The notes below the pieces were generated by a model. The model worked only from the letters and a program-made list of their open reading frames with translations. It was not told the DNA's origin and did not search any database. The translations under genes were made by a program, and so were the position numbers. Of a DNA stretch of 56,930 nt, positions 9,073 to 24,659 are shown in pieces. Source of the stretch: Candidatus Pacearchaeota archaeon (GTDB lineage: Archaea; Nanobdellota; Nanobdellia; Pacearchaeales; GW2011-AR1); assembly GCA_018304045.1 (NCBI GenBank), contig JAGVWZ010000022.1, positions 1-56,930 on the forward strand, read 5' to 3'. Numbering within the stretch: the first letter of the stretch is position 1; every line of letters starts with the position of its first letter.

Positions 9073-9699
9073 TTATTGATGTTGGTTAATCTGGTCTGTC
9101 CATATTTCAAAAAATTTATAGCTTATTTTTTCCTTGTTTAGAAGGTTTATTATTTTATCTGCAGAGATTTTTGGAACCAAAAATGAGGAAGGAGAGAGTT
9201 TTTTACCATTAAGTTCATTTAAGATTCCTTCTTTATTGTATTTCTTTTCTTTTCTTCCAAATATCATTCTTATTATTTTGTTTCTTTTTGCTATTTTTTT
9301 TATTGGGTCTATGTTAAATTGTACAAATAATTTAATATTTTTTGGAGATTCTTTGTATTTGCTATAGAGAATTATTCCATCACTTATTATGCTTCTCTTA
9401 AGCTTCCATTCATTAATATTTCCAATTTGATAATTTATTGTGTTTTTAATACCTTTTTGATTCCATATTTCATTAATTTTTGATTTATAGAATTTACTTG
9501 ATTCTTCATCTATTATTTTTTTTATTTTTTGCTCATCTTTTTTTGTATTTAAGAATATGTCTATATCACTTTTGTTATCTGCTTCACCCCTTGCAACAGA
9601 TCCAAATAAGATTATTTCCTCTATTTCATTTAATTTTGGAAATATAAATGATACAAATGACATTGCATATGCAATTAAGTCAGATTTCAATGTTTTCAT
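9073..9699 (-). CDS. nucleotidyltransferase-domain protein (MNT-like)
   Basis: ILFGSVARGEADNKSDIDIFL is the GS...DxD motif of minimal nucleotidyltransferases. Confidence 0.7.
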   Translation of the reverse strand: MKTLKSDLIAYAMSFVSFIFPKLNEIEEIILFGSVARGEADNKSDIDIFLNTKKDEQKIKKIIDEESSKFYKSKINEIWNQKGIKNTINYQIGNINEWKLKRSIISDGIILYSKYKESPKNIKLFVQFNIDPIKKIAKRNKIIRMIFGRKEKKYNKEGILNELNGKKLSPSSFLVPKISADKIINLLNKEKISYKFFEIWTDQINQHQ

Positions 9700-10108
9700 T
9701 TTTTAATAACTCCTTAAAAATAGTTTTTAATTTATTAAAATTTTCAAGCATATTTTTTATTTGATTTTCAGCAGGTTTTCCATACATTAAAATATTTCTT
9801 TCTTCTTCTAGAATATATATTAATTTATAAATCTCTTCTTTTTTTGGGAATATTACTGGAAGTTTTCTTTCTATTAGAGGTTCTATTCTTTGTTCTGGCT
9901 TTGGTTTTTTGAACCAATCATGCTTAATTATTTTTCCAATGGAAATTTTATTTGTTAAATGCAGATATAATTCTAGATACTGGATTACGCATGCAGAACA
10001 ATGAAATCCAATTGTTACTGGTTTTCTTTCTATGCCTGAATTTATTGCATCTTCAATCTCTTCTAGATGCTCTATTATTTTTTTTCTATGTTCTTCTATT
10101 GTAGTCAT
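9680..10108 (-). CDS. HEPN-like helical partner of the NTase
   Basis: It overlaps the NTase start by 20 nt. The helical N-terminus and the FHCSACVIQYLELYLH segment resemble PF05168-type HEPN. The assignment is tentative. Confidence 0.4.
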   Translation of the reverse strand: MTTIEEHRKKIIEHLEEIEDAINSGIERKPVTIGFHCSACVIQYLELYLHLTNKISIGKIIKHDWFKKPKPEQRIEPLIERKLPVIFPKKEEIYKLIYILEEERNILMYGKPAENQIKNMLENFNKLKTIFKELLKNENIEI

Positions 10109-10505: not shown

Positions 10506-10525
10506 ATAAATTCGCTAGATTGACT

Positions 10526-11677
10526 ATGGGAAAAAGAGGATTGTTTTTATTATTTTTAATTGTTATTAGTCTGGTTTTTGTTTCTGCATTTAATTTTAAT
10601 TCAAATATTTTTGTTAAAAAAGGGGAATTAAAGGTTACAGATGAACATCCGTTCTTTTTGAATGAAAGTTGGGTTAAGGCTTCTGAGTTAAATGTTGGGG
10701 ATGAGCTTGTTACTGTTGATGGAAAGATTGCTAGGATTGTTAATGTTAAGGATGTTAATGAAGAAACTCTTGTTTATAATTTAAGAGTTAATGGTTATGA
10801 GGATTATTTTGCCGAGGGAATTCTTGTACATAATAAAGCTATGGTAAACGCTTATTTAGATGAAGGAATCGGTCCAAATTATGTATTGGGAAGAGGAGAT
10901 GAGGTTGAAATATTGCTTCATGGGGAGGTAATTCGTGGAAAAATTTATCCTAGTTATGATGAAAATAAAAAGGTTATGGATTATCTTCTTGAAGATTCTA
11001 ATGGAAAGTTAATTAATTTTTATCCTTCTGAACTTGACAGATTAACAATTATTGGCAAAAGAGAAGTATTATCTCCAACTTATTTTATTGAGTCTGTTGG
11101 AGACCCAATGTTAGAATCTTCTTTTTGGAAAACAAAGGGATTAATTATTGAAGCATCTTCTCAAAGGGAGTATCGGGGAGTAAAATTTATACCTTTTTCA
11201 GAGTTACCTGATGAAATAGCTGGAGATATTCGTGCAGGGGCAATATTAGGTAATGGATATTCTAAAATCCATACTCATCCCTATGTTGATGAGTTTAGTC
11301 ATAGTTCAATGATACCTTCTTTAACTGATGTAAACTCTTTTTTAATGGATTACGATCTTAAAAGTAGTATCATTGCAATTAGGAATACAGATACTGGGGA
11401 AGTTGCAGGTTATATATTCCTTAAGAGAATAGATTCTAATCCGGAGATAAGTGCTGAATATTTAAGAAAATTTAATAATGATGTTAAAGATTATTCTCCA
11501 ACTGCAGATGGACTTAAATTTTTAGACTATTGGGATTTTTTTGGCAAGGTATATCCTGATGTTTATTTTAGTGGAATGGAAAAACTTAGGGAATATGGAA
11601 TCACCTATAGGATTGTACCAAATAAAAATGCAGGATATGTATTTGATGAAGAGGCCATAGGCTTTATCAAGAAATAA
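10526..11677 (+). CDS. secreted HINT-C cassette protein with a JAB/MPN-like C-terminal domain
   Basis: Signal peptide MGKRGLFLLFLIVISLVFVSA. The HINT C-half is ELKVTDEHPFF...VGDELVTVDGKIARI...VYNL...GILVHN (10628-10834). The tip carries IHTHPYVDEFSHSSMIPSLTD, a JAMM-like HxH..S..D pattern. The ORF track starts at TTG 10520. Confidence 0.65.
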   Translation: MGKRGLFLLFLIVISLVFVSAFNFNSNIFVKKGELKVTDEHPFFLNESWVKASELNVGDELVTVDGKIARIVNVKDVNEETLVYNLRVNGYEDYFAEGILVHNKAMVNAYLDEGIGPNYVLGRGDEVEILLHGEVIRGKIYPSYDENKKVMDYLLEDSNGKLINFYPSELDRLTIIGKREVLSPTYFIESVGDPMLESSFWKTKGLIIEASSQREYRGVKFIPFSELPDEIAGDIRAGAILGNGYSKIHTHPYVDEFSHSSMIPSLTDVNSFLMDYDLKSSIIAIRNTDTGEVAGYIFLKRIDSNPEISAEYLRKFNNDVKDYSPTADGLKFLDYWDFFGKVYPDVYFSGMEKLREYGITYRIVPNKNAGYVFDEEAIGFIKK

Positions 11678-12480: not shown

Positions 12481-15400
12481 ATGAAAACAAATAAATTACT
12501 TTTGAGTATTTTTTTAATATTTATTATTATATTTTACATTAATTTTGTTATAGCAGAAGTTAGTATTAAGGTTGAACCTGATAAAACAATTAATGACCTT
12601 GATTCTCAGACTAGTATTAATGTCAATAATCTTCAAAATTATATTAAACAGAATATTCCTGATTTAAATAATAATCCTGATTTGGGAAAAATAGTTGTTG
12701 ATGTTGATGGAAAAATTAGACTTTATTATAATAACAAAATAGTTTTTGATATACCTAAAGGAATTAAACTAACTTTTGATGGAAAAAAAATGGTTTTTAG
12801 TGGATCTGTTCAGTCTGTTTATACCACAACTTCTAATGGAAGACAACAAGAGATTCCTAGTTTAGTTATAAAAGGAATCATGATTGGAAGTGAAAAGTCT
12901 AAGACTTTTTCTGCTTATTTTGAAGAAAATAATGGGATTATTAATTTGAGGGTTACTGGTGGAATGGGTGTAAGCCAATACAATAGTGACAGGGTTAGTT
13001 TAAGTTATATGATTTATAATCTTAAGGATGGAACTCTAAAAATTGATTCTAATAAAAAACAACTAATTTCTGTAAAAGGAGTTTTTGGAGATTATGGTGG
13101 AGATATAAGAATAGGTGGCAGTGAAACTTCTGATACTTCTTTTAAATTAAATTATTTGGGATTAAAAAATGCTGAGATGAATTTCAATGATAAAAATGAA
13201 GTTGAATATGCTAAATTAGCTTCTTTAAAAGAACAAACTTATAGTTTTGATTATAATGGGAAGAAGTTTGTATTTGGTACAAATAAAGATGGGGGGGAAG
13301 TTATATTTGATCCATTACATCAAATAATCTCTGGAACTAATGCTAATTTAGCTTTTTCTAAAATGGTTGTTGATTCAAAGGGCACTTTTACAGGAAGTCT
13401 TGATGCAGATGGAAATATTGTTTCTCTTAGTTTAGATAATAAAGGAAAATTTAAGGATGATAGGGGTAATGATTATTCATCTTCAAAAAGTTTGAAGGTA
13501 TATTTAGATGGAAAGGATATTAAATCTGAGGAAAATGCTGTTTCATTTATTCTTGGTTCTGAATCAAAGACTACATTAAAGGGTTTAGTAGATGTTATTA
13601 CTACTTCTAAGCTTCATTATTCTGGAAATGAAAAAGCATATACTTTGTTTGATAGTAGAATTAATAATGATTATGGAAAACCTTTTTTTGAAGTTAAAGA
13701 AGGAATCGCTCAAATTGATAATGGTAATGCAAAAATTTTAGTCAGGGATGGAAAAATATTATTAAATAAAATAGGTCTTTCTGATAGAAATGGTTTTGGT
13801 CCTGAATTTGTTGTAAAAGCAACTGGTAAGGACCAAAAGGAAACTTTAGCTAATATTGTCTATACAAATGATGATTTTTCTATTTCAATTAAGTCTTTTA
13901 TTAATGGAAAGGAAACAGACACAAAGGTTGTTGCTTTAAGTAAGGTTAGTGAAACCATGTCTCTTTCTAATTTATTATTTAATTCAGAAAATGTTTTGGT
14001 TGAAAAAGCTTATGCAAAAGCTAGACTAGAGCAACTTCAAGCAGAGCTTGAAATCACAAGAAGCAATGATTTTGATCCTGAAATAAAAAGTAAAATTGAT
14101 GCATTAGAACTTGATATTGTAAATAATCAGAATAAACTTGAAGGTGATGTTGACAAATCTATCGGAAGAATTAGGGATTATTTAGATTCACAAAACAGGG
14201 AAGATGAATCTAGGATGACTGCTCAATTAAGATTAGCTGAATTAATAGGGGATAAAGCAAGTTTAAAATATCAGGAATTTAGAGCAGCGAGTAAAGATGT
14301 AAAGCCTGAGGGAGTAGCTCTTTTAACTTTGGATGAAATTGGTTCAGAAGTTAATAAAATCAAAGACGAATCCTTAAAAATTTATTCAGATTTGATTAGA
14401 GAATCAAAAGGGAATAATGAGAATGTATTTTTAGCTGCTAGTTTTGGTCTTGCAGAATCTTATAAGAAAACAGGGGATTTTAAACAATCTGTTGATGGTT
14501 ATTTAAGCATATCTGGTTCTTCTGAATTTTCTGATGTGGTCAGGTCTGAGGCAATGAGGCAAGCTGCAATTATTGCTACTGAAACAGGAAGTAGATCTGA
14601 TGCTTTAAAATACCTTGAACAGTCTATTAGCCTTAATTCAGATAATGTAAATTCACAAATCTTTGGAAAAAATGTTCAATTAACTTATCTTCGTCAAATG
14701 GTAGGTTCAATGGGAAATGAAGAAACAGAGGCTTATCAAACACTTTTATCTTCAATTGGTTATAATAGGGCGGCTAGTATTACAACTTCTAATGAGCAAT
14801 TATTAGCTAATGTAAATTCAGCTGCAGCAGAATTAACAGAACAACAGTTAGGTGCATTTGCAAATATGTATGCTTTAGATAATGGTTTGACATTGAAAGA
14901 ATTTTATTCTCAGAATCAAGAACAAAGAATAAAGACACTTGAATCTTATTGGATCAGGCAAGGAATGAATCCTGGAAAAGATTCTGAATTTATTGCTAGA
15001 CTTGTTAGTGGGAGTTTTAAGATTGATAATAATCCTGATATGATGGTTCTTAGAGATCCTATTAAAAATTCTGATTTAACTTTAACACTCGATACTCCTG
15101 GTAAAAAATATATGCAACAGGTTTTTTCAATAAGAGATGATATTCTTACTTATGTAAATCCATTTCAAGCTGCAGCCCTTCTTCTGCCTTTTGCTTCTGT
15201 ATCCTATGGTGGAAAAATTATTGGTACTGTTGGAAGTTTAATGGGTGAAGGATTAAATGCAGCTACTCTTGGAGGAGCAGGTGTTTTAAGAACAACAATG
15301 GCTGAAAATTTAGGAGCTTTTACAACTGATTTGCTTCTTGGAACTGGATTATCTGTTGGTGCATATCAAATTCCAGGAGAGGTTTATGGAATTGGTGTTG

Positions 15401-15978
15401 GTGAAGTTGCAGCTCAGGCTGCTGCTATGATAAGTTTTGAGAGATTAGTTACTCAGACTTTAGAAAAAGTAGCTGGTAAATTTAGTCTCGAGGCTGCAGG
15501 TGCATTTAAGAGTGAGGTTGGAGGAGAATTAAAATTAATTCCTGCTTTTAGGGTTGTTGGAGCAGAGGCTGATGCTACTGCAGAAACTTTGGCTCAAAAA
15601 GGTCTTAGGATGATAGAAACTGAAACTGGAGAAAAATTATTTGTTCCAGATTCTGCTGAAGTTGAAGGATTAGAATACTTATTAAAAAGGGATCTTCAAG
15701 TTGGAGCTAGTTCTGGATTAAGAGGTGCTCAACAAAATTTAGATGAAGCTGTAGACAGTTTAGATGCTGCTTTTGCTAGTCCAACAGGTTGTTTCTTAGC
15801 AGGAACAAGAATAATGCTTTCTGATGGAAGCTATAGAAACATTGAAGATATTCAAGAAGGAGATTCTGTTAAGAGTTATGATTTGACTAAGAAATTAGTT
15901 GTTGATTCTAATGTTACAATGACTTTTGTAAGAAAATCTGACAGCTATAGAATAATTGAATATGAGATTCTTGGATAA
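12481..15978 (+). CDS. 1165-aa secreted carrier protein ending in the N-terminal part of a pretoxin-HINT domain
   Basis: N-terminal signal peptide, a large beta-rich region, a coiled-coil/TPR-like middle and a Gly/Ala-rich hydrophobic stretch. The last 62 aa are CFLAGTRIMLSDGSYRNIEDIQEGDSVKSYDL...YRIIEYEILG-stop (15790-15975), which is HINT block A only. Confidence 0.7.
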   Translation: MKTNKLLLSIFLIFIIIFYINFVIAEVSIKVEPDKTINDLDSQTSINVNNLQNYIKQNIPDLNNNPDLGKIVVDVDGKIRLYYNNKIVFDIPKGIKLTFDGKKMVFSGSVQSVYTTTSNGRQQEIPSLVIKGIMIGSEKSKTFSAYFEENNGIINLRVTGGMGVSQYNSDRVSLSYMIYNLKDGTLKIDSNKKQLISVKGVFGDYGGDIRIGGSETSDTSFKLNYLGLKNAEMNFNDKNEVEYAKLASLKEQTYSFDYNGKKFVFGTNKDGGEVIFDPLHQIISGTNANLAFSKMVVDSKGTFTGSLDADGNIVSLSLDNKGKFKDDRGNDYSSSKSLKVYLDGKDIKSEENAVSFILGSESKTTLKGLVDVITTSKLHYSGNEKAYTLFDSRINNDYGKPFFEVKEGIAQIDNGNAKILVRDGKILLNKIGLSDRNGFGPEFVVKATGKDQKETLANIVYTNDDFSISIKSFINGKETDTKVVALSKVSETMSLSNLLFNSENVLVEKAYAKARLEQLQAELEITRSNDFDPEIKSKIDALELDIVNNQNKLEGDVDKSIGRIRDYLDSQNREDESRMTAQLRLAELIGDKASLKYQEFRAASKDVKPEGVALLTLDEIGSEVNKIKDESLKIYSDLIRESKGNNENVFLAASFGLAESYKKTGDFKQSVDGYLSISGSSEFSDVVRSEAMRQAAIIATETGSRSDALKYLEQSISLNSDNVNSQIFGKNVQLTYLRQMVGSMGNEETEAYQTLLSSIGYNRAASITTSNEQLLANVNSAAAELTEQQLGAFANMYALDNGLTLKEFYSQNQEQRIKTLESYWIRQGMNPGKDSEFIARLVSGSFKIDNNPDMMVLRDPIKNSDLTLTLDTPGKKYMQQVFSIRDDILTYVNPFQAAALLLPFASVSYGGKIIGTVGSLMGEGLNAATLGGAGVLRTTMAENLGAFTTDLLLGTGLSVGAYQIPGEVYGIGVGEVAAQAAAMISFERLVTQTLEKVAGKFSLEAAGAFKSEVGGELKLIPAFRVVGAEADATAETLAQKGLRMIETETGEKLFVPDSAEVEGLEYLLKRDLQVGASSGLRGAQQNLDEAVDSLDAAFASPTGCFLAGTRIMLSDGSYRNIEDIQEGDSVKSYDLTKKLVVDSNVTMTFVRKSDSYRIIEYEILG

Positions 15979-16058: not shown

Positions 16059-16658
16059 ATGTTAAAGAATGATGAAATTAAAATATTGAAATTCTTGTTT
16101 GATGATTTAAACAATAATCCTACTATGAGAAATGTTTCAATGTCACTTAAGCAAAAATATCCTCAAACATTTAAAACCATCAAAAATCTAGAAAAAAATG
16201 GATTTATAATACTTAATGAAATTGGAAAAAGTAAAGTTATTCATTTAAATTTTTCAAAAGATAATCTTTATTATATCTGTGTTGAAATTGAGCGAACCGA
16301 GGATTTATGCAAAAAGAATATGGAAATGTTAATTATTAAAGAAAAATTAAAAGACTGTGGGAATTTTGTTTCTTTGATATTTGGAAGCCATGCAAAAAAT
16401 AAGAATCTGAAAGGTTCAGATATTGATTTATTAATCATAATTCCTGATGAAAAAGAAGTAGAAATAACTAATAAAAAAATTAAGAATGCTTTATCTTTGT
16501 ATAATATTGATCTTAATATTATTAGTGAAAAAAGCTTATTTGAAATGTGGGAAAATAAAAGAGAATTAAATGTTGGAAATGAAGTATTAAAAAATCATTA
16601 TGTATTGACTGGTTTTGAAACTTATATAAATTATTTAAGAAAAAAATATGGAAGATAA
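16059..16658 (+). CDS. wHTH + minimal nucleotidyltransferase (MNT)
   Basis: LIFGSHAKNKNLKGSDIDLLIII is the NTase motif. The N-terminus looks like a winged helix. It overlaps the next gene by 11 nt. Confidence 0.7.
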   Translation: MLKNDEIKILKFLFDDLNNNPTMRNVSMSLKQKYPQTFKTIKNLEKNGFIILNEIGKSKVIHLNFSKDNLYYICVEIERTEDLCKKNMEMLIIKEKLKDCGNFVSLIFGSHAKNKNLKGSDIDLLIIIPDEKEVEITNKKIKNALSLYNIDLNIISEKSLFEMWENKRELNVGNEVLKNHYVLTGFETYINYLRKKYGR

Positions 16659-17202
16659 ATATAAAACTAGTACAAGTATAATCAAGAATTTGATAACTGA
16701 AGGAAAAATTAAAGAAGCAATACCTGAAAGCAAAGACTTTTTCTTAAATAAAGCTATTTCTTCAGTTACTCTTTCAGATAGATTATTTAGATTACAAGAT
16801 GAAGAAGATATTGAAACAAATATGTGGATAATAAATATTTCTTATTATGCTATGTTTTTTGCTGCAACAGCACTTCTTGCAAAATATAAAAAGAAAATTG
16901 ACAGTGAGATTGGGATTCATATTTTCACATATCATGCATTAGTCCATTATTTTTTTAATGAGGATAATAAAATTGAAAAACAGTTTATTGAAGAGTATAA
17001 AGATGCTGTTGATGAAGCTGAAGAATTATTGAGGATTTCTGAAAGAAAATCAATAGAATTCATTTCTGATTTCAAGAATGAGCTTGAAAAAAGAAAGATT
17101 TTTACATATAATCTTGGAAGCATAGCTGAAAAAAACAAGGCAGAAACTTCATTAAAAAGAGCTAAGAATTTTGTTAGAATAATTGAGGGAATGATAAAAT
17201 GA
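16648..17202 (+). CDS. HEPN-domain protein (partner of the MNT)
   Basis: Helical PF05168-like pattern (NISYYAMFFAATALLAKYKKK..GIH.FTYHAL). Its TGA overlaps the ATG of the next cassette as ATGA. Confidence 0.6.
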   Translation: MEDKYKTSTSIIKNLITEGKIKEAIPESKDFFLNKAISSVTLSDRLFRLQDEEDIETNMWIINISYYAMFFAATALLAKYKKKIDSEIGIHIFTYHALVHYFFNEDNKIEKQFIEEYKDAVDEAEELLRISERKSIEFISDFKNELEKRKIFTYNLGSIAEKNKAETSLKRAKNFVRIIEGMIK

Positions 17203-18022
17203 AAAATTTATTTAAAAATAGAAAAACAGGTGTTTATTTTATTTTAATATTAATAATTTTTTTAATTGTAATTAGTTTAGTTTTTGTTTCTGCTTTTAAC
17301 TTCAACAAAAATGTATTAAAAGTTACAGATGAACATCCATTTTTTGTTACAGAGAATTGTTTTAATTCTCTGTCCAGTAAAAATCAAACTCAAGATTTTT
17401 CCTGTAATGGAAGTTGGGTTGTTGCTAAAGATTTGCATGTTGGTGATGAGCTTTTTACTATTGATGGAAAGATTGCTAGGATTGTTGGGATTAAAGATGT
17501 TGATGAAAATGTTCTTGTCTATAATCTAGGGGCAGAAAAATATAATGATTTTATTGTTGTGAAACTGTTTTTTTTGAAGCAAGTCTTGGGCAAGATGTGG
17601 AATTAATAAATGATCTCTTTGGCACCAGTGTAAGGTTTAAAGATGGGGCTACAACATTTATTAAAGATACCTCTGAATTAGGTTATATATATGATTTTGG
17701 TTCTGTTGTTAAACAAGATAGAATTTTTTTAAAAGAAGCTAGTAAGTTTGGTCATCAAACTAGTGAAAGAATGGAAGCTATGATTGAAAGGTTATTAGGT
17801 GGGGGAGATCCTGGAAAAGGTAGCCATACTCTTACTGGAGTAAGTAATTCTGTACTAGAGGCTACATCTCAGGGAAAAGAAAGGATATATTATAGAATTA
17901 AACATATTGAGGGTCAAAGATCTCAATTAATAATATTAGCATATTCTCTTAAAGATAGTAGTCAAAAAAGGGTTATAGACCATTTGCAGGTTTTATATCC
18001 TCCAGGTTATAAGTTTCCTTGA
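17199..18022 (+). pseudogene. HINT-C cassette with a RelE/ParE-like tip, frame-disrupted at a T8 run
   Basis: Head MKNLFKNRK plus signal peptide plus LKVTDEHPFF..(19-aa insertion)..VGDELFTIDGKIARI..VYNL..KYNDFIV. The frame breaks at tttttttt (17568-17575) and the terminal VHN is missing. The downstream frame encodes ...GKGSHTLTG..GKERIYYRIKH..QLIILAYSLK. Confidence 0.5.
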
Positions 18023-18343
18023 TTAACTTTCTTCTGATTCTGTGAACACTTGATTTAATCTCTCCCTTATGATTAGATTTTCAATGCTATATTCCAATGT
18101 TTTGTGAGAAATTCTTGGAACAATTCTATCTGTTTGTTCTACTTGTTCTCCTTTTTGCCTTAATGTTTCTACTACTCGAGGAGTTATGTAGGTCCCTACA
18201 TAGGTTTTAGGATCTTGGGGCAGTTTTAGATAAACATCAACTGATGCATCTTCGGGATTTAGAGGTTCTTGATAGGGCCAAAATAGCTCATAAGAAAATC
18301 TTTCTTTTTCAATCCATTTGTTTAATAAAAGAGTTTCAACCAT
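18023..18343 (-). CDS. small cytoplasmic protein, candidate immunity partner
   Basis: 106 aa with no signal peptide. Its stop abuts the stop of the 17199-18022 cassette with a 0-nt gap, tail-to-tail. A TATA-like tttttaaa lies about 27 nt upstream of its ATG. Confidence 0.35.
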   Translation of the reverse strand: MVETLLLNKWIEKERFSYELFWPYQEPLNPEDASVDVYLKLPQDPKTYVGTYITPRVVETLRQKGEQVEQTDRIVPRISHKTLEYSIENLIIRERLNQVFTESEES

Positions 18344-18450: not shown

Positions 18451-18471
18451 GATAAATTGTTTGATTTGGTT

Positions 18472-19686
18472 ATGAAAAAAAGAGGATTGTTTGTATTATT
18501 TTTAATTGTTATTAGTTTGATAAGCTTAATTTCAATTGCAAGTTCATTTGATTTGTTTGATAATAAAAACATTTTAAAAGTTACTGGTGAACATCCGTTT
18601 TATTTAAATGGTGAGTGGGTTGTTGCTAAAGATTTGAATGTTGGTGATGAGCTTTTGACTATTGATGGAAAAATTGCGAGGATAATTGGGATTAAAGATG
18701 TTAATGAAAATGTTGATGTGTATAATATAGAGGCTGAGGAGTATAATGATTTTATTGTTGGGCAGGGAATTATTGTGCATAATTCTGATGCTGTTGAATC
18801 AATTCCTCAAATAGAACAAAGACTTGAAAGTGGAGGAATAACTCTGGCTGAACTTGACAGGATTGATTATGCTAATTATCTTTTAGAAAAAAATGGATTA
18901 TCAATATTAACTCCTGAACAAGAAAGAGCACTTTTGCTGTCTCATTATTCAAATACTGGAAATATTGACAAAGTTTGGAGATTGGGTGAAGCTGGTTTAA
19001 GTAATGAACAAATAACTCTTCTAGGAGATAATTGGGTATTTGGTGATAATTTAATATCTTTAAGTGAGGAATTAAAGCAATGGTTAGTCAATGCAGGGGT
19101 TACTAGTAAGGAAGCTAAATCATTATTAACTGGGGTGAATAGTTATGATCAACAAATTGAAATTTTAAAGAGAATAATGGCTGAAAAGAAATTCCTTCCT
19201 GGTGGAAAAACAGGAGGATATATGCCTTTATCAAATCTACAAGTGTCTAGTGAAGTTGTTCTTAATGAGGTGGATATTTTTTTAGCAGGAAATCAAGTTC
19301 TTAGAAATGGAAAACCTGTTCAAGGCCTTTCAATAGGTAATGGATATATTGAATTTGTTGGATATCATTTTACATCACAAATTGGAGCTGATAATTTATA
19401 TAATCAAATGAAATTTGAAAGAATAAACCCATTTGACCCTTATATTTATTTTTCAGAGTCTGGTTGGTTTACAGGAAAATCTCAAAATGAAATAAGGCAG
19501 GTACTTGGTGCAAAATCTGCTCAAGATGTTGTAATTGTGAAAATACGATATCCCTTGAATAAAGCATGGTTGAAGGCAGAACCTGGAAAACCTATTAAAA
19601 TAGCTTTTGATGGGGATATTATTGCAGAAGATCTTTTAAAGAGAAAAGGGATTTTAATGGAAATTAAGGATATTAATGATTTATAG
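18472..19686 (+). CDS. secreted HINT-C cassette protein with a putative ADP-ribosyltransferase-like tip
   Basis: Signal peptide MKKRGLFVLFLIVISLISLISIASS. Complete HINT C-half LKVTGEHPFY...GIIVHN/S (18574-18783). The C-terminal region has YHFTS, PYIYFSES and IIAEDLL, a pattern reminiscent of H-Y-E ARTs. The ORF track starts at TTG 18457. Confidence 0.55.
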   Translation: MKKRGLFVLFLIVISLISLISIASSFDLFDNKNILKVTGEHPFYLNGEWVVAKDLNVGDELLTIDGKIARIIGIKDVNENVDVYNIEAEEYNDFIVGQGIIVHNSDAVESIPQIEQRLESGGITLAELDRIDYANYLLEKNGLSILTPEQERALLLSHYSNTGNIDKVWRLGEAGLSNEQITLLGDNWVFGDNLISLSEELKQWLVNAGVTSKEAKSLLTGVNSYDQQIEILKRIMAEKKFLPGGKTGGYMPLSNLQVSSEVVLNEVDIFLAGNQVLRNGKPVQGLSIGNGYIEFVGYHFTSQIGADNLYNQMKFERINPFDPYIYFSESGWFTGKSQNEIRQVLGAKSAQDVVIVKIRYPLNKAWLKAEPGKPIKIAFDGDIIAEDLLKRKGILMEIKDINDL

Positions 19687-20421
19687 ATTTTGAAGAGCTT
19701 TTTCTATTGATCTATAAAATCTTGTTTCAAATCTATGTTGGTTCGCATGAGGTTGTCTTATTGAAAGCTGAAGTAATGCTTGTTCTGGTTTTGTAAGTCT
19801 TCTATACATAGCTAGAACTCTTATAAGTGGTTCTACTTGTGTTTCATCTTCAAATTGTTTTTGTATCATGACTTCATCTACTTTTAATCTCATTTGCCTT
19901 AATCTTTCTTGAAAATAAAAATCAAAATATTGTTTTAAGAAAACAGAATGCGCTAATGGGGATGGATTTTTAATATCTAAATTGTCTTCAACATCATAAA
20001 AATAAACAGGACTATCTAAAGATTTTTCTAAAACTTCATTTTTTACTTCTTCTGGAACATAGTTTTGAAGGTAAAAAAAATAAGATGGTTTATAGATCTT
20101 TTTTCTTGCTTCTAAAATGTCCATGGATTCTTTGCCTAACAAATGTGCTTCAACATTTCCTTTTCTTTTTCTTGGTCTTCTTGTAAATAAACTGAAGTCA
20201 GTAAAACCATTTATTAATTTCAATCCTTGCCATATTGATTCTACACTGTTTGCATATGCAACTTGTTCTGGTACTGGTATTTTAAATTCTGGAGAATAGG
20301 TGAATGGGCTAAACAGGTTATATGGGGCTTCTCCATAACTACTTACATCCAATGCAGTATCTATTCCTTGGGAATTTTCTCTAGTAGTTGCATTAAATCT
20401 TTCAGTCATTTTGGTGTCCAA
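19681..20421 (-). CDS. hypothetical protein co-transcribed with the macrodomain gene
   Basis: 246 aa with no signal peptide. It overlaps the macrodomain gene by 16 nt and the toxin cassette 3-prime end by 6 nt. A weak NADAR-like N-terminal pattern (NLFSPF...SVESIWQGLK) is not convincing. Confidence 0.3.
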   Translation of the reverse strand: MDTKMTERFNATTRENSQGIDTALDVSSYGEAPYNLFSPFTYSPEFKIPVPEQVAYANSVESIWQGLKLINGFTDFSLFTRRPRKRKGNVEAHLLGKESMDILEARKKIYKPSYFFYLQNYVPEEVKNEVLEKSLDSPVYFYDVEDNLDIKNPSPLAHSVFLKQYFDFYFQERLRQMRLKVDEVMIQKQFEDETQVEPLIRVLAMYRRLTKPEQALLQLSIRQPHANQHRFETRFYRSIEKALQNL

Positions 20422-20837
20422 ATCTCTAAATTTAGTCTTGATTCACTGAAATATTTTTCAATTATTTTTTCTACAACTTCCCAATTTTGTCTGCCTAATC
20501 CACATCCAATTTTTGGCATTGCAATTGTGCTTATATTTGGTAATTGTAATCTAGACATCCATTCTAATGATGTTTCAATGTAGCCTAATCCTGAGTATCT
20601 TCCATCTTGCGTTGCTAGATTTATTACATGGGGCTTTTGAGGATTTTGATAAATATAACCTGTTCCCAATTGAAATTCTCCTTTTCTGCATCTTCTTTGA
20701 AAATCTTCATACATTTCTGGAAATCTTTCTTTGAAACCCCTGGCTATGCCTGCATTCATTTTTCCAACTATATTACAACCATGAGCCAATGCATCTGTGT
20801 TTGAAGAGAATAAATCTCCATGCCTATACGGTATCAT
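20406..20837 (-). CDS. macrodomain protein, TARG1/OARD1/DarG-like
   Basis: HGDLF..TDALAHGCN..GKMNAGIARGFKERFPE ... IAMPKIGCGLGRQNWEVVEKIIEKYF. From memory this is collinear with human TARG1 (GDLF..SLAH..MGAGIA..FK..F ... MPRIGCGLDRLQWE.V..IEEVF). Confidence 0.8.
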   Translation of the reverse strand: MIPYRHGDLFSSNTDALAHGCNIVGKMNAGIARGFKERFPEMYEDFQRRCRKGEFQLGTGYIYQNPQKPHVINLATQDGRYSGLGYIETSLEWMSRLQLPNISTIAMPKIGCGLGRQNWEVVEKIIEKYFSESRLNLEIWTPK

Positions 20838-20944: not shown

Positions 20945-20965
20945 GATAAATTGGTTGATTTTGTT

Positions 20966-21834
20966 ATGAAAAAAAGAGGATTGTTTGTATTATTAATTGT
21001 AATCAGTTTGATAAGCTTAATTTCAATTGCAAGTTCATTTGATTTGTTTGATAATGGAAGTAAAAATATATTGAAAGTTACAGGTGAGAAAAATATAATG
21101 ATTTTATTGTTGGGGAGGGGGTTATTGTTCATAATAGTAATAGGATTGTTCCTGACATTACAGAATCCTATTATGAGGTTTTTGTTTATAATTGGGGTAA
21201 ACAATCTAGAGATCTTGTTCCAGGATTTAGTGAAGATGGAATGCTTGAAATAATTATAGTTGATTTTGAGAATGTCAGGCCTGGTTTAAAAAGCGCAATT
21301 GAAACAAGGTTTTCTAGATCTTTTGATTCAATAACTAGTACTTCAAGTTTTGATGAACTAAATAGTGCTGCTGTAAGTTTTTCAAAGAGAATGTATGATG
21401 ATCTTCCGTTTTTAGGCTATAGAACAATAGAGACAATGAGAATTGAAACTTTGGATCAAAAAATTCTTTTTTATAACTATCTGAAGTTATCTCAGGATGG
21501 CACCCCAACATTAAGCGAGTTGATTAATTCTAAGATGTTAGATTGTACTGGTGAGAATCTTTTGATTAGAGAATCGCTTGGTGGAAGCAATAGTGGATGG
21601 AAAATTTTCCATGGAATTGATAATGTTGGGAGGGAAAGAGCCCATACTTTTCTTGCAAAAGAATTTGATATAGATGGAAATTCCTATATGGTGATTATAG
21701 ATCCTACTGAATATAAATTGTATTCAGGCTCTATGAATACTGGGATAAATCCTGATTATATCAGGCCATATGCGATGGTCATTCCAAAACAAGATTTTGA
21801 GAGAAGGGGATTTGTGCAAGTAAGTTTGAGATAG
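20966..21834 (+). pseudogene. mini-HINT cassette with a transglutaminase/papain-like tip; frame break in an A5 run
   Basis: Signal peptide plus ILKVTGE, then a frame break at 21089-21093. One extra A would give GEKKYNDFIVGEGVIVHN/S in frame. The tip has DCTGENLL (Cys 21544), RAHTFL (His 21643) and VIIDPTE (Asp 21699), a Cys-His-Asp order. Confidence 0.5.
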
Positions 21835-21968: not shown

Positions 21969-22706
21969 TTATTCAAATCCAAGAAGAGTGTCTGAATTTC
22001 CTTTTATTTTTATTGTTGGATTTTGTTTTGCATCGATTATACTTTTATAGAAGGATGGGTCGAATAGAACTGCTTGTCTTAAGTCAGGTATATATGAGCA
22101 AGGAACTTTTGTTTCAAGACCTGTCGGGCACTTAAATATACCTTGTTTTAATGGAAATCTATTGTCTGTTAAAATTGAGGTATCATATCCTATATGTGGC
22201 ATTGAATCTCTTGCTATTTCTTCTGCTAGTATTCTTGAATAGTATTCTGTTGGTTTTGATTGCCCATTTTGTTGCTTTAAAAAATCTGCTAGTGTTATTA
22301 GGTCTGTGAATAATCTTACTGGATCTTCTGTTCTTAGGTTTTGTAAGAATTCATGAGAAGGTAATGACTGAGTGTCTTTTATTGATAGAGTTATTTCATA
22401 ATCATTCTCTGGATTTAATAATTGTATTTTTTCAACCTCATATTCCCTTTTTGCTATTCTTCCTGGAGGAATTAAAGCAGAGTATCTTTGCTTAAGATAT
22501 GCTATATCTTCATTGATGTCTTTTCTTAATAGAAATCCTACTCTTCCTTGTTGTGTTGGTAGTTCACATTGTTCTGAATTAAATCCAATGCATGTAGATA
22601 TTGTTATATCTTGAGGTTGTCCTAATCTATAATAAAACAATTGAAATCTTGAGTTTCTTTTAAGAGCTTTTTTATTATATTTTTGAGTTCTGTCGTTTAT
22701 TTCCAT
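21969..22706 (-). CDS. hypothetical cytoplasmic protein (candidate immunity partner)
   Basis: 245 aa with no signal peptide, convergent with the 20966 cassette and in an operon with the SGNH hydrolase gene. Confidence 0.3.
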   Translation of the reverse strand: MEINDRTQKYNKKALKRNSRFQLFYYRLGQPQDITISTCIGFNSEQCELPTQQGRVGFLLRKDINEDIAYLKQRYSALIPPGRIAKREYEVEKIQLLNPENDYEITLSIKDTQSLPSHEFLQNLRTEDPVRLFTDLITLADFLKQQNGQSKPTEYYSRILAEEIARDSMPHIGYDTSILTDNRFPLKQGIFKCPTGLETKVPCSYIPDLRQAVLFDPSFYKSIIDAKQNPTIKIKGNSDTLLGFE

Positions 22707-22720
22707 TTTATTTCCAAATT

Positions 22721-23353
22721 TTAGCGGTATATTAATTTTGCTACCTCTTGTGCTATTAATTTTGCCCCTTCTTCATTTGGATGAACTGCATCTGCAAAAT
22801 GTTCATCTCTTAGAACAGAGCAGATATCTGCTAGAGGTATATTATTAGATGTTGCATATTCTCTTAGTGCTGAATTATGAAATTGTCTTTGAAAGACTGC
22901 ATTTGCATATCCTCTCTTTGAAAATTTTCTTGAATTTACATTTAAAACATTTATTAAAATGATTCTTTTGTCTCTTTGTTTTATTTCTTTTACAGCAGAT
23001 TCTAAACTTCTTATTACTTTTGGAGAAATAATCTCTATTTGGTCTGTTGGAATATCATTTGTTCCATAACCTATTATGAAATATCCAGAAAATGGAAAAA
23101 GTTCAAGAGCTTTTCTTGCTCTGATTGTTGCTACTTTACTTTCTTCACCAGATATACCACAATCAGCTACTTGAGTATCTGTTGATTCTTGTAGGAATAC
23201 TGGATAGGTTCTATAGGGGCCACTTGGAAAACTAGTTCCTCTTGTATTGTTCCACCCAGTTATACTGTCTCCGACACATACTATCTTCACTTGCTCTTTT
23301 TTAGCCTGAAAATCAGGAGTGTTTTCATCAACCAAATATAATAATTTTGTCAT
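22721..23353 (-). CDS. SGNH/GDSL-family hydrolase
   Basis: Block I VCVGDSITGW, block III GYGTND, block V DAVHPNEEG. Confidence 0.75.
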   Translation of the reverse strand: MTKLLYLVDENTPDFQAKKEQVKIVCVGDSITGWNNTRGTSFPSGPYRTYPVFLQESTDTQVADCGISGEESKVATIRARKALELFPFSGYFIIGYGTNDIPTDQIEIISPKVIRSLESAVKEIKQRDKRIILINVLNVNSRKFSKRGYANAVFQRQFHNSALREYATSNNIPLADICSVLRDEHFADAVHPNEEGAKLIAQEVAKLIYR

Positions 23354-23574: not shown

Positions 23575-24144
23575 ATGGTACTTACAAAAGAACAAAAAAT
23601 AATTATTATTTTATTTAAAGAAAAGCTTGGATTTTATAATAGCAGAAGCATGTCAAAAATAGTTGGAATTAGTCATCCTGGTGCATTTAAAATACTGAAA
23701 AAACTTGAGAAAAATTTTATAGTTAGTTCTAAAAGGATTGGAAAAGCAATTATTTTTTCTTTGAATTTTGAAAATCCTATGACAAAAAACTTGGTTGAAA
23801 ATGCATTAATAGCAGAATCACAGGAATATAAAAGATGGGTTGAAGAATTTAAGGAAATTGAAGAAATATCTTTATTTGCAATATTATTCGGCTCAATTAT
23901 AAAAAATGAAAATTCAGCAAAGGATATTGATTTACTTGTTGTTTCAGAACAAAATTATCAATCCATTATACAAAAGATAATAAATGGAAAAAACAAGATT
24001 TCTAATAAAAAAATTCATTTAATTCTGCAAATAGGAGAAGATTTTTTAAATGACCTGCATAAAAATAATAAAGTTATTCTTGAAATAATAAAAACAGGCA
24101 TTGTGTTATTTGGACAAGATAAATTTATTAAACTGATAAAATGA
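23575..24144 (+). CDS. wHTH + minimal nucleotidyltransferase (MNT)
   Basis: ILFGSIIKNENSAKDIDLLVV is the NTase motif. The architecture matches 16059-16658. It overlaps the next gene as ATGA. Confidence 0.7.
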   Translation: MVLTKEQKIIIILFKEKLGFYNSRSMSKIVGISHPGAFKILKKLEKNFIVSSKRIGKAIIFSLNFENPMTKNLVENALIAESQEYKRWVEEFKEIEEISLFAILFGSIIKNENSAKDIDLLVVSEQNYQSIIQKIINGKNKISNKKIHLILQIGEDFLNDLHKNNKVILEIIKTGIVLFGQDKFIKLIK

Positions 24145-24659
24145 GCGAGGCAAAAAGAAAAGTGGAATGGTGCTTGAGAAAAGCAGAAGAAGAATTAAAA
24201 AAAGGAACAAAACATAGGGGATTGGTTTTGAAGGAACAAAATTTATCTGAAGCTAGAAAACATATTCAAAAAGCAGAGCATAATCTTAAGGCAATTGAAT
24301 ATTTTAGCAATGGGGGATTTTCAGATTGGAGCATGAGTGCTGTTTTTTATTGCATCTATCATTGTTTTCTTGCAATAAACATGAAATTTGGATATGAAAG
24401 TAGAAATCAGGAATGTACTATTGCTCTTGTCAAACATCTAAAAGAGGAAAATAAAATAAATTTAGATGATAGATTCATAGATGCTTTGGAAATCTATGAT
24501 GAAAGTGAAAGACATGAGACAAATGTTATTGAAAAAAGAGAATATTACACATATGGAACAACTGTTTCAGCAGATAATAAGGAAGAAATTGAAGCAAGCA
24601 TTGTTTTATGCAAGGACTGCATAGCTCAAACGAAAAATATAGTTTTTCAAGATAATTGA
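24141..24659 (+). CDS. HEPN-domain protein
   Basis: EARKHIQKAEHNLKAIEYFSNGGFSDWSMSAVFYCIYHCFLAINMKFG fits the PF05168-type HEPN helix pattern. Confidence 0.6.
   Translation: MSEAKRKVEWCLRKAEEELKKGTKHRGLVLKEQNLSEARKHIQKAEHNLKAIEYFSNGGFSDWSMSAVFYCIYHCFLAINMKFGYESRNQECTIALVKHLKEENKINLDDRFIDALEIYDESERHETNVIEKREYYTYGTTVSADNKEEIEASIVLCKDCIAQTKNIVFQDN

Follow-up and report, generated by a model that had tools for sequence, protein, structure and literature searches.

A HINT toxin cassette with a predicted ADP-ribosyltransferase-like tip and its convergent DUF6939 and macrodomain genes in a DPANN-type archaeon

The gene at positions 18472-19686 of contig JAGVWZ010000022.1 of Candidatus Pacearchaeota archaeon (the whole analysed stretch of 56,930 nucleotides is called the window below) is a toxin cassette, intact and translated as a unit of its own. 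It belongs to a polymorphic-toxin island of the HINT type, and the archaeon is of the DPANN type. The C-terminal part of the cassette, the tip, is most likely a domain with the ADP-ribosyltransferase (ART) fold, as judged from a structure model. The cassette gene converges with a minus-strand operon that encodes a macrodomain and a protein of the DUF6939 family. In related loci the dominant conserved partner of the tip is DUF6939, not the macrodomain. It is probable that the tip is an ART toxin neutralised by the macrodomain-DUF6939 operon as an antidote, a variation on the theme of DarTG and Tre1-Tri1. The features of the locus are as follows.

18472-19686, plus strand: toxin cassette gene, 404 amino acids from ATG; TTG at 18457 is an alternative start
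18556-18786, plus strand: C-terminal part of HINT, residues 29-105, from block B (LKVTGEHPF) through VHN, followed by Ser+1
18787-19188, plus strand: helical pre-toxin linker, residues 106-239, about 130 amino acids, common to HINT-C cassettes with unrelated tips
19189-19683, plus strand: tip domain, residues 240-404, about 165 amino acids, unannotated family, predicted minimal ART-like fold
19681-20409, minus strand: DUF6939 gene, 242 amino acids from ATG at 20409, proposed antidote
20406-20837, minus strand: DarG-like macrodomain gene, 143 amino acids, first gene of the putative antidote operon

The tip, its cassette and the convergent partners

The locus set comprised 80 genome loci obtained via an alignment of DUF6939, 8 metagenome loci obtained via the tip alignment A3, and individual look-ups. 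All were screened with our own hidden Markov models, and the counts refer to non-redundant loci with a tip-family gene and sequence downstream of it. The first contigs with DUF6939 homologues contained no macrodomain, and each had an unannotated gene convergent to DUF6939. These neighbours are tip-family proteins (phmmer, 4e-45 to 8e-13).

The partner is convergent in every one of about 31 non-redundant tip loci. DUF6939 is the only partner in about 21 of them. It is accompanied by a DarG-like macrodomain in about 8, in both gene orders: DUF6939 precedes the macrodomain in L019, L021, L028 and L045, and the macrodomain comes first, as in the window, in L096, L099 and L100. The macrodomain alone was found in two loci, L091 and L093. 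The first-pass annotation of the window had linked the tip with the macrodomain, and this association does recur, up to being exclusive in two loci; however, DUF6939 is present in about 29 of the 31 loci and the macrodomain in about 10. The 3' ends of the convergent genes overlap by 6-53 nucleotides in roughly 20 loci; in most of the others, no more than about 15 nucleotides separate them.

In the window, the stop codon TAG of the cassette (19684-19686) and the stop codon TAA of the minus-strand operon (19683-19681) both lie within TTATAG at 19681-19686, confirming the 6-nucleotide tail-to-tail overlap with a two-gene operon seen at first pass. In the operon the macrodomain gene (20837-20406) is followed by DUF6939 (20409-19681). 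The stop codon of the former and the start codon of the latter share ATGA, and thus the two genes are translationally coupled.

The tip family was collected by exhaustive phmmer search over 1.84 billion cluster representatives. It yielded 49 representatives, about 45 of which match the tip domain proper; the database cluster P0001 is the same protein as the window cassette. Positions P243, G285, H299, D322, Y326, E329, G346, A350, P374 and A378 are nearly invariant in 40 aligned members. The initial reading of the tip rested on three motifs, all present (GYHFTS at 297, DPYIYFSES at 322 and IIAEDLL at 383), taken to represent the H-Y-E pattern of ART enzymes. The first two correspond in the family to GxH[FY][TS], which in the model lies on a strand followed by a helix, and DP[YF]xYxxE on the next strand. 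Since their positions, H299 and Y326 among them, are nearly invariant, these are real family signatures. The third motif with E386 is not conserved across the alignment, and this part of the pattern has to be dropped. Candidates for the catalytic acid are the nearly invariant E329 of DPYxYxxE and D380 of KIAFDGD, the latter position being acidic (Asp or Glu) in roughly two of every three members.

The AlphaFold model of the tip built from the family alignment has pLDDT 95.4 and pTM 0.89. Among its six best Foldseek matches in PDB, only Tpt1 (8tfz), the DUF952 protein CC0527 (2o0q/2o0p) and Agrobacterium protein 6b (3aq2) have a probability above 0.3. The best by E-value is Tpt1 of Pyrococcus (E 0.027, TM-score 0.29, root mean square deviation 14 A), whereas the DUF952 structures have probability 0.91-0.94 and target TM-score 0.49. 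The respective Pfam families, PTS_2-RNA, DUF952 and RolB_RolC, all belong to the ART clan (PMC7955679). In BFVD the best matches are phage proteins of about 100 amino acids (probability 1.00, E 9e-4 to 2e-3, target TM-score 0.57-0.64, root mean square deviation 3.9-4.9 A), one of which is named ssDNA thymidine ADP-ribosyltransferase DarT. Thus the structural comparison for an ART or DarT fold gave best matches from the ART clan only, although these are weak and no DarT was recognised by sequence. According to the model, the C-terminal 115 or so residues of the tip most probably adopt a minimal ART-like fold.

Indeed, as far as sequence can tell, the tip belongs neither to DarT nor to another ART family described so far. 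Neither the window protein nor the 40 members match the DarT profile (PF14487/DUF4433) in Pfam, NCBIfam or PADLOC. Together with the hhalign comparison given below, this rules out a DarT detectable at the sequence level. The family is also unrelated by hhalign to the RhsF-like family described in the next section. The sole trace in the profile scans is a sub-threshold match to Tox-ART-HYD1 (E 0.07). A word-indexed homology search with the tip or with a 26-sequence tip alignment returned only the query itself or 4 proteins.

The cassette that carries the tip consists of an N-terminal hydrophobic signal or transmembrane segment, the C-terminal half of HINT, the helical linker and the ART-like tip. 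A HINT C-terminus ending in VHN/S had been noted in this open reading frame at first pass, and profiles agree: residues 29-105 match positions 55-137 of the 137 positions of PT-HINT (PF07591, E 1.3e-12), residues 82-105 match the intein C-terminus model TIGR01443, the Pfam family Intein_splicing is matched as well, and VHN|S occupies residues 102-105. The HINT, macrodomain and DUF6939 profile matches are all far above chance. As in other PT-HINT cassettes, HINT with the His-Asn pair and a +1 nucleophile directly precedes the variable toxin domain. However, only about 60% of HINT, the C-terminal portion, is present; block A with Cys1 is absent from the open reading frame, and the signal or transmembrane segment stands at the N-terminus.

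The linker recurs in HINT-C cassettes with other tips. Three proteins (P0049, P0056 and P0057) are 58-65% identical to residues 3-89 of the tip query and have different C-termini; they are stand-alone homologues from elsewhere with the layout signal, HINT-C, linker, toxin. The linker is also present in P0039, P0041 and P0042, and unrelated tips sit behind the same HINT and linker in the sister cassettes of the window.

The tip itself occurs in proteins of several forms: as a bare domain of about 160 amino acids, with an N-terminal transmembrane helix, with a coiled coil, behind HINT-C and linker, or inside a polyvalent-type protein. HINT-C-fused tips are those of the window cassette and of P0048 in locus L095, the latter with a DUF6939 gene of its own. 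Delivery modules vary while the domain and its partner remain constant, a pattern characteristic of toxin-antidote pairs.

The polyvalent-type protein has the tip in its middle:

L103, 126-4910, plus strand: at least 1594 amino acids

By eye, lysozyme-like, M23-peptidase-like (HxGxD...HLH), FHA-like and DnaJ-like segments can be distinguished in it, and it resembles polyvalent proteins of phages and conjugative elements. There is no DUF6939 or macrodomain gene in the 6 kb of sequence covered.

Candidate antidotes

The window protein matches DUF6939 (PF22075) at residues 21-160 with E 1.5e-24 and 87 bits against a cut-off of 27. Across 37 archaeal homologues 24 residues, mostly polar, are invariant, and the model has pLDDT 94.8. 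The family has 384 relatives in GTDB species genomes, and it is solitary in hundreds of bacterial genomes. No paper on DUF6939 or PF22075 was found in the literature searched.

The motif FSPF...SVExxWQxLK of DUF6939 locally resembles FSNF...SEHxFQAxK of NADAR. Assignment to NADAR was nevertheless rejected as unproven, as hhalign of 117 DUF6939 against 10 NADAR sequences gave E 0.11 over 36 columns, YbiA alone gave nothing, and no NADAR structures are among the 50 best Foldseek matches listed.

The DUF6939 proteins paired with tips are mostly 240-290 amino acids long and have three or four extra C-terminal helices (about 190-242 in the window protein). Solitary bacterial ones are about 180 amino acids long (comparison of L032-L090), and the copy facing an RhsF-like toxin in L049 has 182 amino acids. 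By analogy with the C-terminal domain of DarG, the extension could be a toxin-binding module.

A second family of DUF6939 partners was found in three DPANN loci that contain no tip gene. Here too the genes are convergent and overlapping.

L049, 5407-6201, minus strand: second DUF6939 partner family
L058, 5401-6171, minus strand: second DUF6939 partner family
L060, 5390-6226, minus strand: second DUF6939 partner family

These proteins have the invariant pattern FRG...ISxT...NxE, and their profile aligns to PDB chain 9zdm_B along the entire domain (E 0.0044). The latter is RhsF-CT, a type VI secretion system (T6SS) Rhs toxin with the ART fold, whose toxicity requires R1403, Y1456 and E1497 and which is occluded by a small immunity protein, RhsFi (bioRxiv 10.64898/2025.12.06.692724). 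The Arg, Ser and Glu aligned to RhsF-CT are invariant residues of the DPANN family. The L060 member also has a weak Pfam match to NarE. Thus DUF6939 has two unrelated toxin families as partners. One is homologous to a proven ART; the other is the tip family with its predicted ART-like fold, which also pairs with macrodomains. For a partner of both, action on a common ADP-ribose adduct would be an easier explanation than specific occlusion.

Further convergent neighbours of DUF6939, all on the minus strand and with no Pfam match, are encoded at 5552-7177 in L042, 5496-6773 in L079 and 3536-4330 in L055. The first two are related (28% identity, E 4e-28). These neighbours may represent additional toxin families served by DUF6939.

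In three bacterial loci, the short form of DUF6939 shares an operon with a homologue of GTP cyclohydrolase II, an AMP-binding enzyme, a protein resembling class-II aminoacyl-tRNA synthetases and an Ldh_2 dehydrogenase.

L040, 2196-8025: operon of this type in Burkholderia pyrrocinia
L048, 2237-8067: operon of this type in Chromobacterium fluminis
L069, 992-9131: operon of this type in a Bacteroidota metagenome-assembled genome (MAG)

NADAR/COG3236 is linked to GTP cyclohydrolase II as well, as phage NADARs are annotated so. This hints at N-ribosyl chemistry for DUF6939. However, no conserved partner was found in the bacterial DUF6939 neighbourhoods; the operon occurs in only 3 of about 50 loci, too few for a function to be deduced.

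The first gene of the window operon does encode a macrodomain of the TARG1/OARD1 type and DarG class, as originally proposed. It matches Pfam Macro (E 1.4e-8), and its best sequence matches in PDB are DarG (5m3i, 1.3e-20; 5m31, 3.3e-16) and the DarTG fusion 7omu, followed by TARG1 (4j5r, 5.9e-13). The PADLOC DarG model matches at 7e-34. The NCBIfam DarG model matches at 1.3e-29 over its N-terminal half only (positions 1-149 of 338, score 103.5 against a cut-off of 250). The catalytic Lys80 and the C-terminal DarT-binding domain of DarG are both missing from the 143 residues. The ADP-ribose-binding loops are retained.

The two deviations from TARG1 are as noted earlier: Q77 (LATQDG) aligns to the lysine of FPTKK in DarG (Lys80), the position of Lys84 in TARG1, and GCGLG at 111-115 replaces GCGLD. 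Thus the Lys84/Asp125 dyad of TARG1/OARD1 is absent. All 10 aligned tip-associated macrodomains have Thr-Gln in place of the Thr-Lys of DarG, and because of this conservation the substitution is regarded as selected and not as a sign of decay. A precedent exists in SCO6735 of Streptomyces coelicolor, which has Gln85 at the lysine position and loses all activity upon Q85A substitution; it removes ADP-ribose attached to thymidine in DNA and has a protective effect against DarT. DarG itself lacks the Asp of TARG1 (PMC9411070). Thus the two deviating residues are no argument against hydrolase activity. The window protein has the SCO6735-type arrangement, with Gln at the lysine position, the conserved Asn (N22) and Gly79 two residues further on (Q77-D-G79), although its overall similarity to SCO6735 (5e3b, E 9e-5) is far weaker than to DarG. 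By analogy with SCO6735 and DarG, Q77 and GCGLG, if anything, hint at a nucleic-acid-linked substrate.

Proposed mechanism and competing explanations

The system might operate as follows. The hydrophobic segment would export or anchor the cassette protein, and cyclisation of Asn at HN|S would release everything downstream. Alternatively, the partial HINT would first be completed by the HINT N-part that ends the large neighbouring protein. The tip, a putative minimal ADP-ribosyltransferase, would then act in the recipient cell and, with NAD+ as substrate, modify a target, most likely a nucleic-acid base, as its partner is DarG/SCO6735-like. The producer would be protected by the convergent operon: the Gln-type macrodomain would hydrolyse the ADP-ribose adduct, and DUF6939 would remove the same adduct by a different chemistry or directly block the transferase. 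Expression of the toxin may be held back further by convergent transcription through the overlapping 3' ends. Where the tip is a stand-alone protein of about 160 amino acids with no delivery module, it and its partner would serve as a toxin-antitoxin module inside the cell.

The first-pass annotation had suggested an ADP-ribose-removing enzyme as immunity to the ART tip. Given that the tip is likely to have the ART fold and that a DarG-like macrodomain recurs near it, twice as the sole partner, this is a reasonable idea; however, it was incomplete, as it left DUF6939 out.

Several observations weigh against the proposed scheme. Many tip/DUF6939 pairs sit among housekeeping genes, and toxin-immunity or type II toxin-antitoxin pairs are not usually convergent. 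Where the late-strand catalytic Glu is expected, at D380, only some two thirds of the tip family have an acidic residue (Asp or Glu), and the invariant E329 stands at a non-canonical place for the catalytic Glu of an ART. No match to the tip and the 40 members was found in scans of Pfam, NCBIfam, PADLOC and PHROGs; a PDB sequence search with the whole protein or the family profile produced only the intein part or noise; and hhalign of the family returned a probability of 0.17% against five plasmid DarT sequences and less than 1%, that is, no relation, against E. coli KptA. At the structural level, no Foldseek match in PDB reaches E 1e-3, and the query TM-scores are 0.29-0.41, low because only the C-terminal 115 or so residues match. 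For DUF6939, the model has no structural neighbour in PDB (no match at probability above 0.14), and neither the single sequence nor the profile finds anything among PDB sequences; with no detectable relative, DUF6939 is no more than a putative enzyme.

The strongest competing explanation, though an unlikely one, is that the tip is ART-like but not a transferase. It would be an NAD+ glycohydrolase or other NAD consumer, and DUF6939 and the macrodomain would only bind, occlude or mop up the product, with no adduct reversed. Many ART-fold tips of polymorphic toxins are NADases and most immunity proteins occlude, RhsFi being an example; the tip family varies at the canonical acidic position of the late strand; and direct interaction is a further way in which SCO6735, DarG and TARG1 inhibit DarT (PMC9411070). 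However, this explanation fits poorly with the existence of three partner configurations, including macrodomain-only pairs, and with DUF6939 serving two unrelated toxin families, which is easier to explain by a product-directed enzyme. Besides, the macrodomain keeps the ADP-ribose-binding loops and the functional Gln, and DUF6939 is marked by its 24 invariant residues, most of them polar, and is solitary in hundreds of bacteria.

Somewhat less probable still is that the tip and DUF6939, with or without the macrodomain, mainly write and erase ADP-ribosylation for housekeeping or regulation in DPANN archaea, the HINT fusion being secondary or decaying. Most pairs are indeed single-copy and located among tRNA synthetase, ribosomal-protein and signal recognition particle genes, many tip proteins have no secretion signals, and DUF6939 is widespread in bacteria without a toxin partner. 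On the other hand, the window cassette is intact while two of its sisters are frameshifted, and a second HINT-fused member, in L095, has its own DUF6939. The tip is also found in the giant polyvalent-type protein of L103, and its N-terminal modules (transmembrane helix, coiled coil, HINT or none) swap freely, which is typical of toxin domains. Moreover, DUF6939 has another partner that is homologous to a genuine Rhs toxin.

A Tpt1-like pathway is very improbable. In this scheme the tip would remove RNA 2'-phosphates using NAD+, DUF6939 would open ADP-ribose 1'',2''-cyclic phosphate, and the macrodomain would remove the 1''-phosphate. Three enzymes at one locus would suit such a pathway, the best PDB Foldseek match of the tip by E-value is Pyrococcus Tpt1, and macrodomains include ADP-ribose-1''-phosphatases, of which 6lfu and relatives are among the weak matches of the window macrodomain. 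However, the Tpt1 match has a TM-score of only 0.29 at 14 A, and hhalign against KptA finds nothing. The catalytic tetrad of Tpt1 is Arg/His/Arg/Arg, and no such four residues are among the invariant positions of the tip family. The macrodomain belongs to the DarG/TARG1 and not the Poa1/Af1521 class, the partners are interchangeable and convergent instead of forming an operon with the tip, and the tip occurs in HINT and polyvalent-protein contexts.

Finally, it is hardly credible that the macrodomain-DUF6939 operon is an independent unit, such as a toxin-antitoxin pair of its own, which overlaps the cassette by accident: at first sight the arrangement resembles a two-gene DarTG-like operon, and immunity genes of polymorphic toxins are usually co-directional, but the tip is tail-to-tail with DUF6939, the macrodomain or both in about 30 loci of different genomes and gene orders, DUF6939 lacks the macrodomain in about 21 loci and is solitary in many bacteria, and this conservation of neighbourhoods rules out a self-contained pair.

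The window system is not a member of DarT2-DarG, DarT1-NADAR, Tre1-Tri1 or Imm-ARG, although it resembles each of them in some respects. With DarT2-DarG it shares a toxin predicted to have the ART fold and a TARG1-class macrodomain, here closest to those of DarG. The H and Y motifs of the tip have the same order and secondary-structure setting as YHxT...FYF of DarT, and the stand-alone tip and macrodomain pairs of L091 and L093 are similar to DarTG. However, the tip has no detectable homology to DarT/DUF4433 and comprises about 165 amino acids with an extra N-terminal beta subdomain, and the 143-residue macrodomain has no DarG C-terminal domain and has Gln for Lys80. Unlike the darT-darG operon, the genes are convergent with overlapping 3' ends, the usual partner of the tip is DUF6939 and not a macrodomain, the lineage is archaeal, and the toxin is carried on a HINT cassette with predicted export.

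In DarT1-NADAR, an ART toxin is neutralised by a non-macrodomain hydrolase, and DUF6939 would take a NADAR-like role; however, the resemblance of the two families is not significant (hhalign E 0.11). Tre1-Tri1 and Imm-ARG combine a secreted ART toxin with an immunity enzyme that removes ADP-ribose, as is proposed here. Imm-ARG was the only enzymatic immunity protein known at the time of the survey by Zhang et al. 2012 (PMC3482391). In the window, the proposed eraser is a macrodomain and/or DUF6939 instead of an ARH/DraG-fold protein, the immunity genes are convergent, and delivery would be by a HINT cassette in an archaeon, in contrast to delivery by T6SS.

SCO6735 has Gln at the TARG1/DarG Lys position followed by x-Gly, as well as the conserved Asn (N22 here), but it is an orphan with no toxin partner, and the equivalent of its Val25 is Gly20 in the window protein. 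As to RhsF-CT/RhsFi of Chromobacterium violaceum, homologues of RhsF-CT are the alternative convergent partners of DUF6939 in three DPANN loci; that toxin family is unrelated to the window tip (hhalign), and RhsFi is unrelated to DUF6939. No such system was described in the archaeal literature searched.

A bolder version of the preferred scheme is tentative, and we consider it possible but less than probable. In it, DUF6939 would represent a hitherto unrecognised class of ADP-ribosyl (N-)glycohydrolases with no detectable relative among solved structures, and would erase the marks left by the tip family as well as by toxins like RhsF-CT. The tip in turn would be a minimal ART of a new kind that probably acts on nucleic acids. 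The whole would be an archaeal toxin-antidote system with obligatorily convergent, 3'-overlapping genes, used both intracellularly and as a HINT payload.

To our knowledge, few classes of ADP-ribosylation erasers have been described (macrodomains, ARH and NADAR). Being widespread and genomically tied to two ART toxin families, DUF6939 is a candidate class that can be tested cheaply. We also know of very little on how DPANN archaea attack, or defend themselves against, hosts and competitors; if the scheme is correct, reversible ADP-ribosylation conflict of the DarTG kind extends to them. An unannotated toxin family would gain a proposed function, the conserved tail-to-tail overlap is uncommon as a regulatory arrangement of a toxin and its antidote, and the conserved Lys-to-Gln macrodomains add natural, toxin-linked examples of the SCO6735-type mechanism.

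The toxin island and its genome

The contig is AT-rich (GC about 30%) and archaeal. The genome had looked archaeon-like from the letters alone, and this holds: the window encodes a threonyl-tRNA synthetase with the archaea-specific editing domain, and the closest relatives of the genes considered come from Woesearchaeota and Nanoarchaeota MAGs. Neither tRNA genes nor Rfam families were found in the window.

The conflict island occupies the 9-25 kb region of the window. It contains a 1165-residue protein whose C-terminus holds the N-terminal block of HINT, four HINT-C cassettes (a hydrophobic signal or transmembrane segment, then the rest of HINT; starts at 10520, 17199, 18457/18472 and 20951) and three nucleotidyltransferase pairs of the MNT/HEPN type interspersed with the cassettes. 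Apart from the ART cassette, the main genes are as follows.

9073-10108, minus strand: nucleotidyltransferase pair
10520-11677: sister cassette, intact, ends in VHN|K, unrelated unannotated tip
12481-15978: 1165-residue protein ending in the N-terminal HINT block
16059-17202, plus strand: nucleotidyltransferase pair
17199-17606 / 17597-18022: sister cassette, frameshifted, unrelated unannotated tip
20951-21253 / 21241-21834: sister cassette, frameshifted, unrelated unannotated tip
23575-24659, plus strand: nucleotidyltransferase pair

Two of the four cassettes are intact, including the one at 18472-19686. All four have their own signal or transmembrane segment followed by block B (LKVTxEHPF) and the remainder up to the final HN; in the ART cassette, Ser+1 comes next. 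Residues from about 1097 to 1165 of the large protein contain HINT block A (G|CFLAGTRIML..., about 62 amino acids), directly followed by the stop codon. From these sequences, HINT appears to be split between the large protein (block A) and the cassettes (block B onward). Such a layout would let one carrier receive alternative toxins by trans-splicing or trans-cleavage, in the manner of split inteins.

The frameshifted cassettes at 17199 and 20951 are followed by convergent unannotated genes, 18023-18343 and 21969-22706, respectively. As both downstream sister cassettes precede convergent genes, convergent putative immunity genes seem to be a local rule in the island. An SGNH/GDSL hydrolase (22721-23353) is encoded behind one of these convergent genes. 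In all three nucleotidyltransferase pairs the first gene matches NTP_transf_2/Polbeta, and the only Pfam match to HEPN is that of the gene at 24141-24659.

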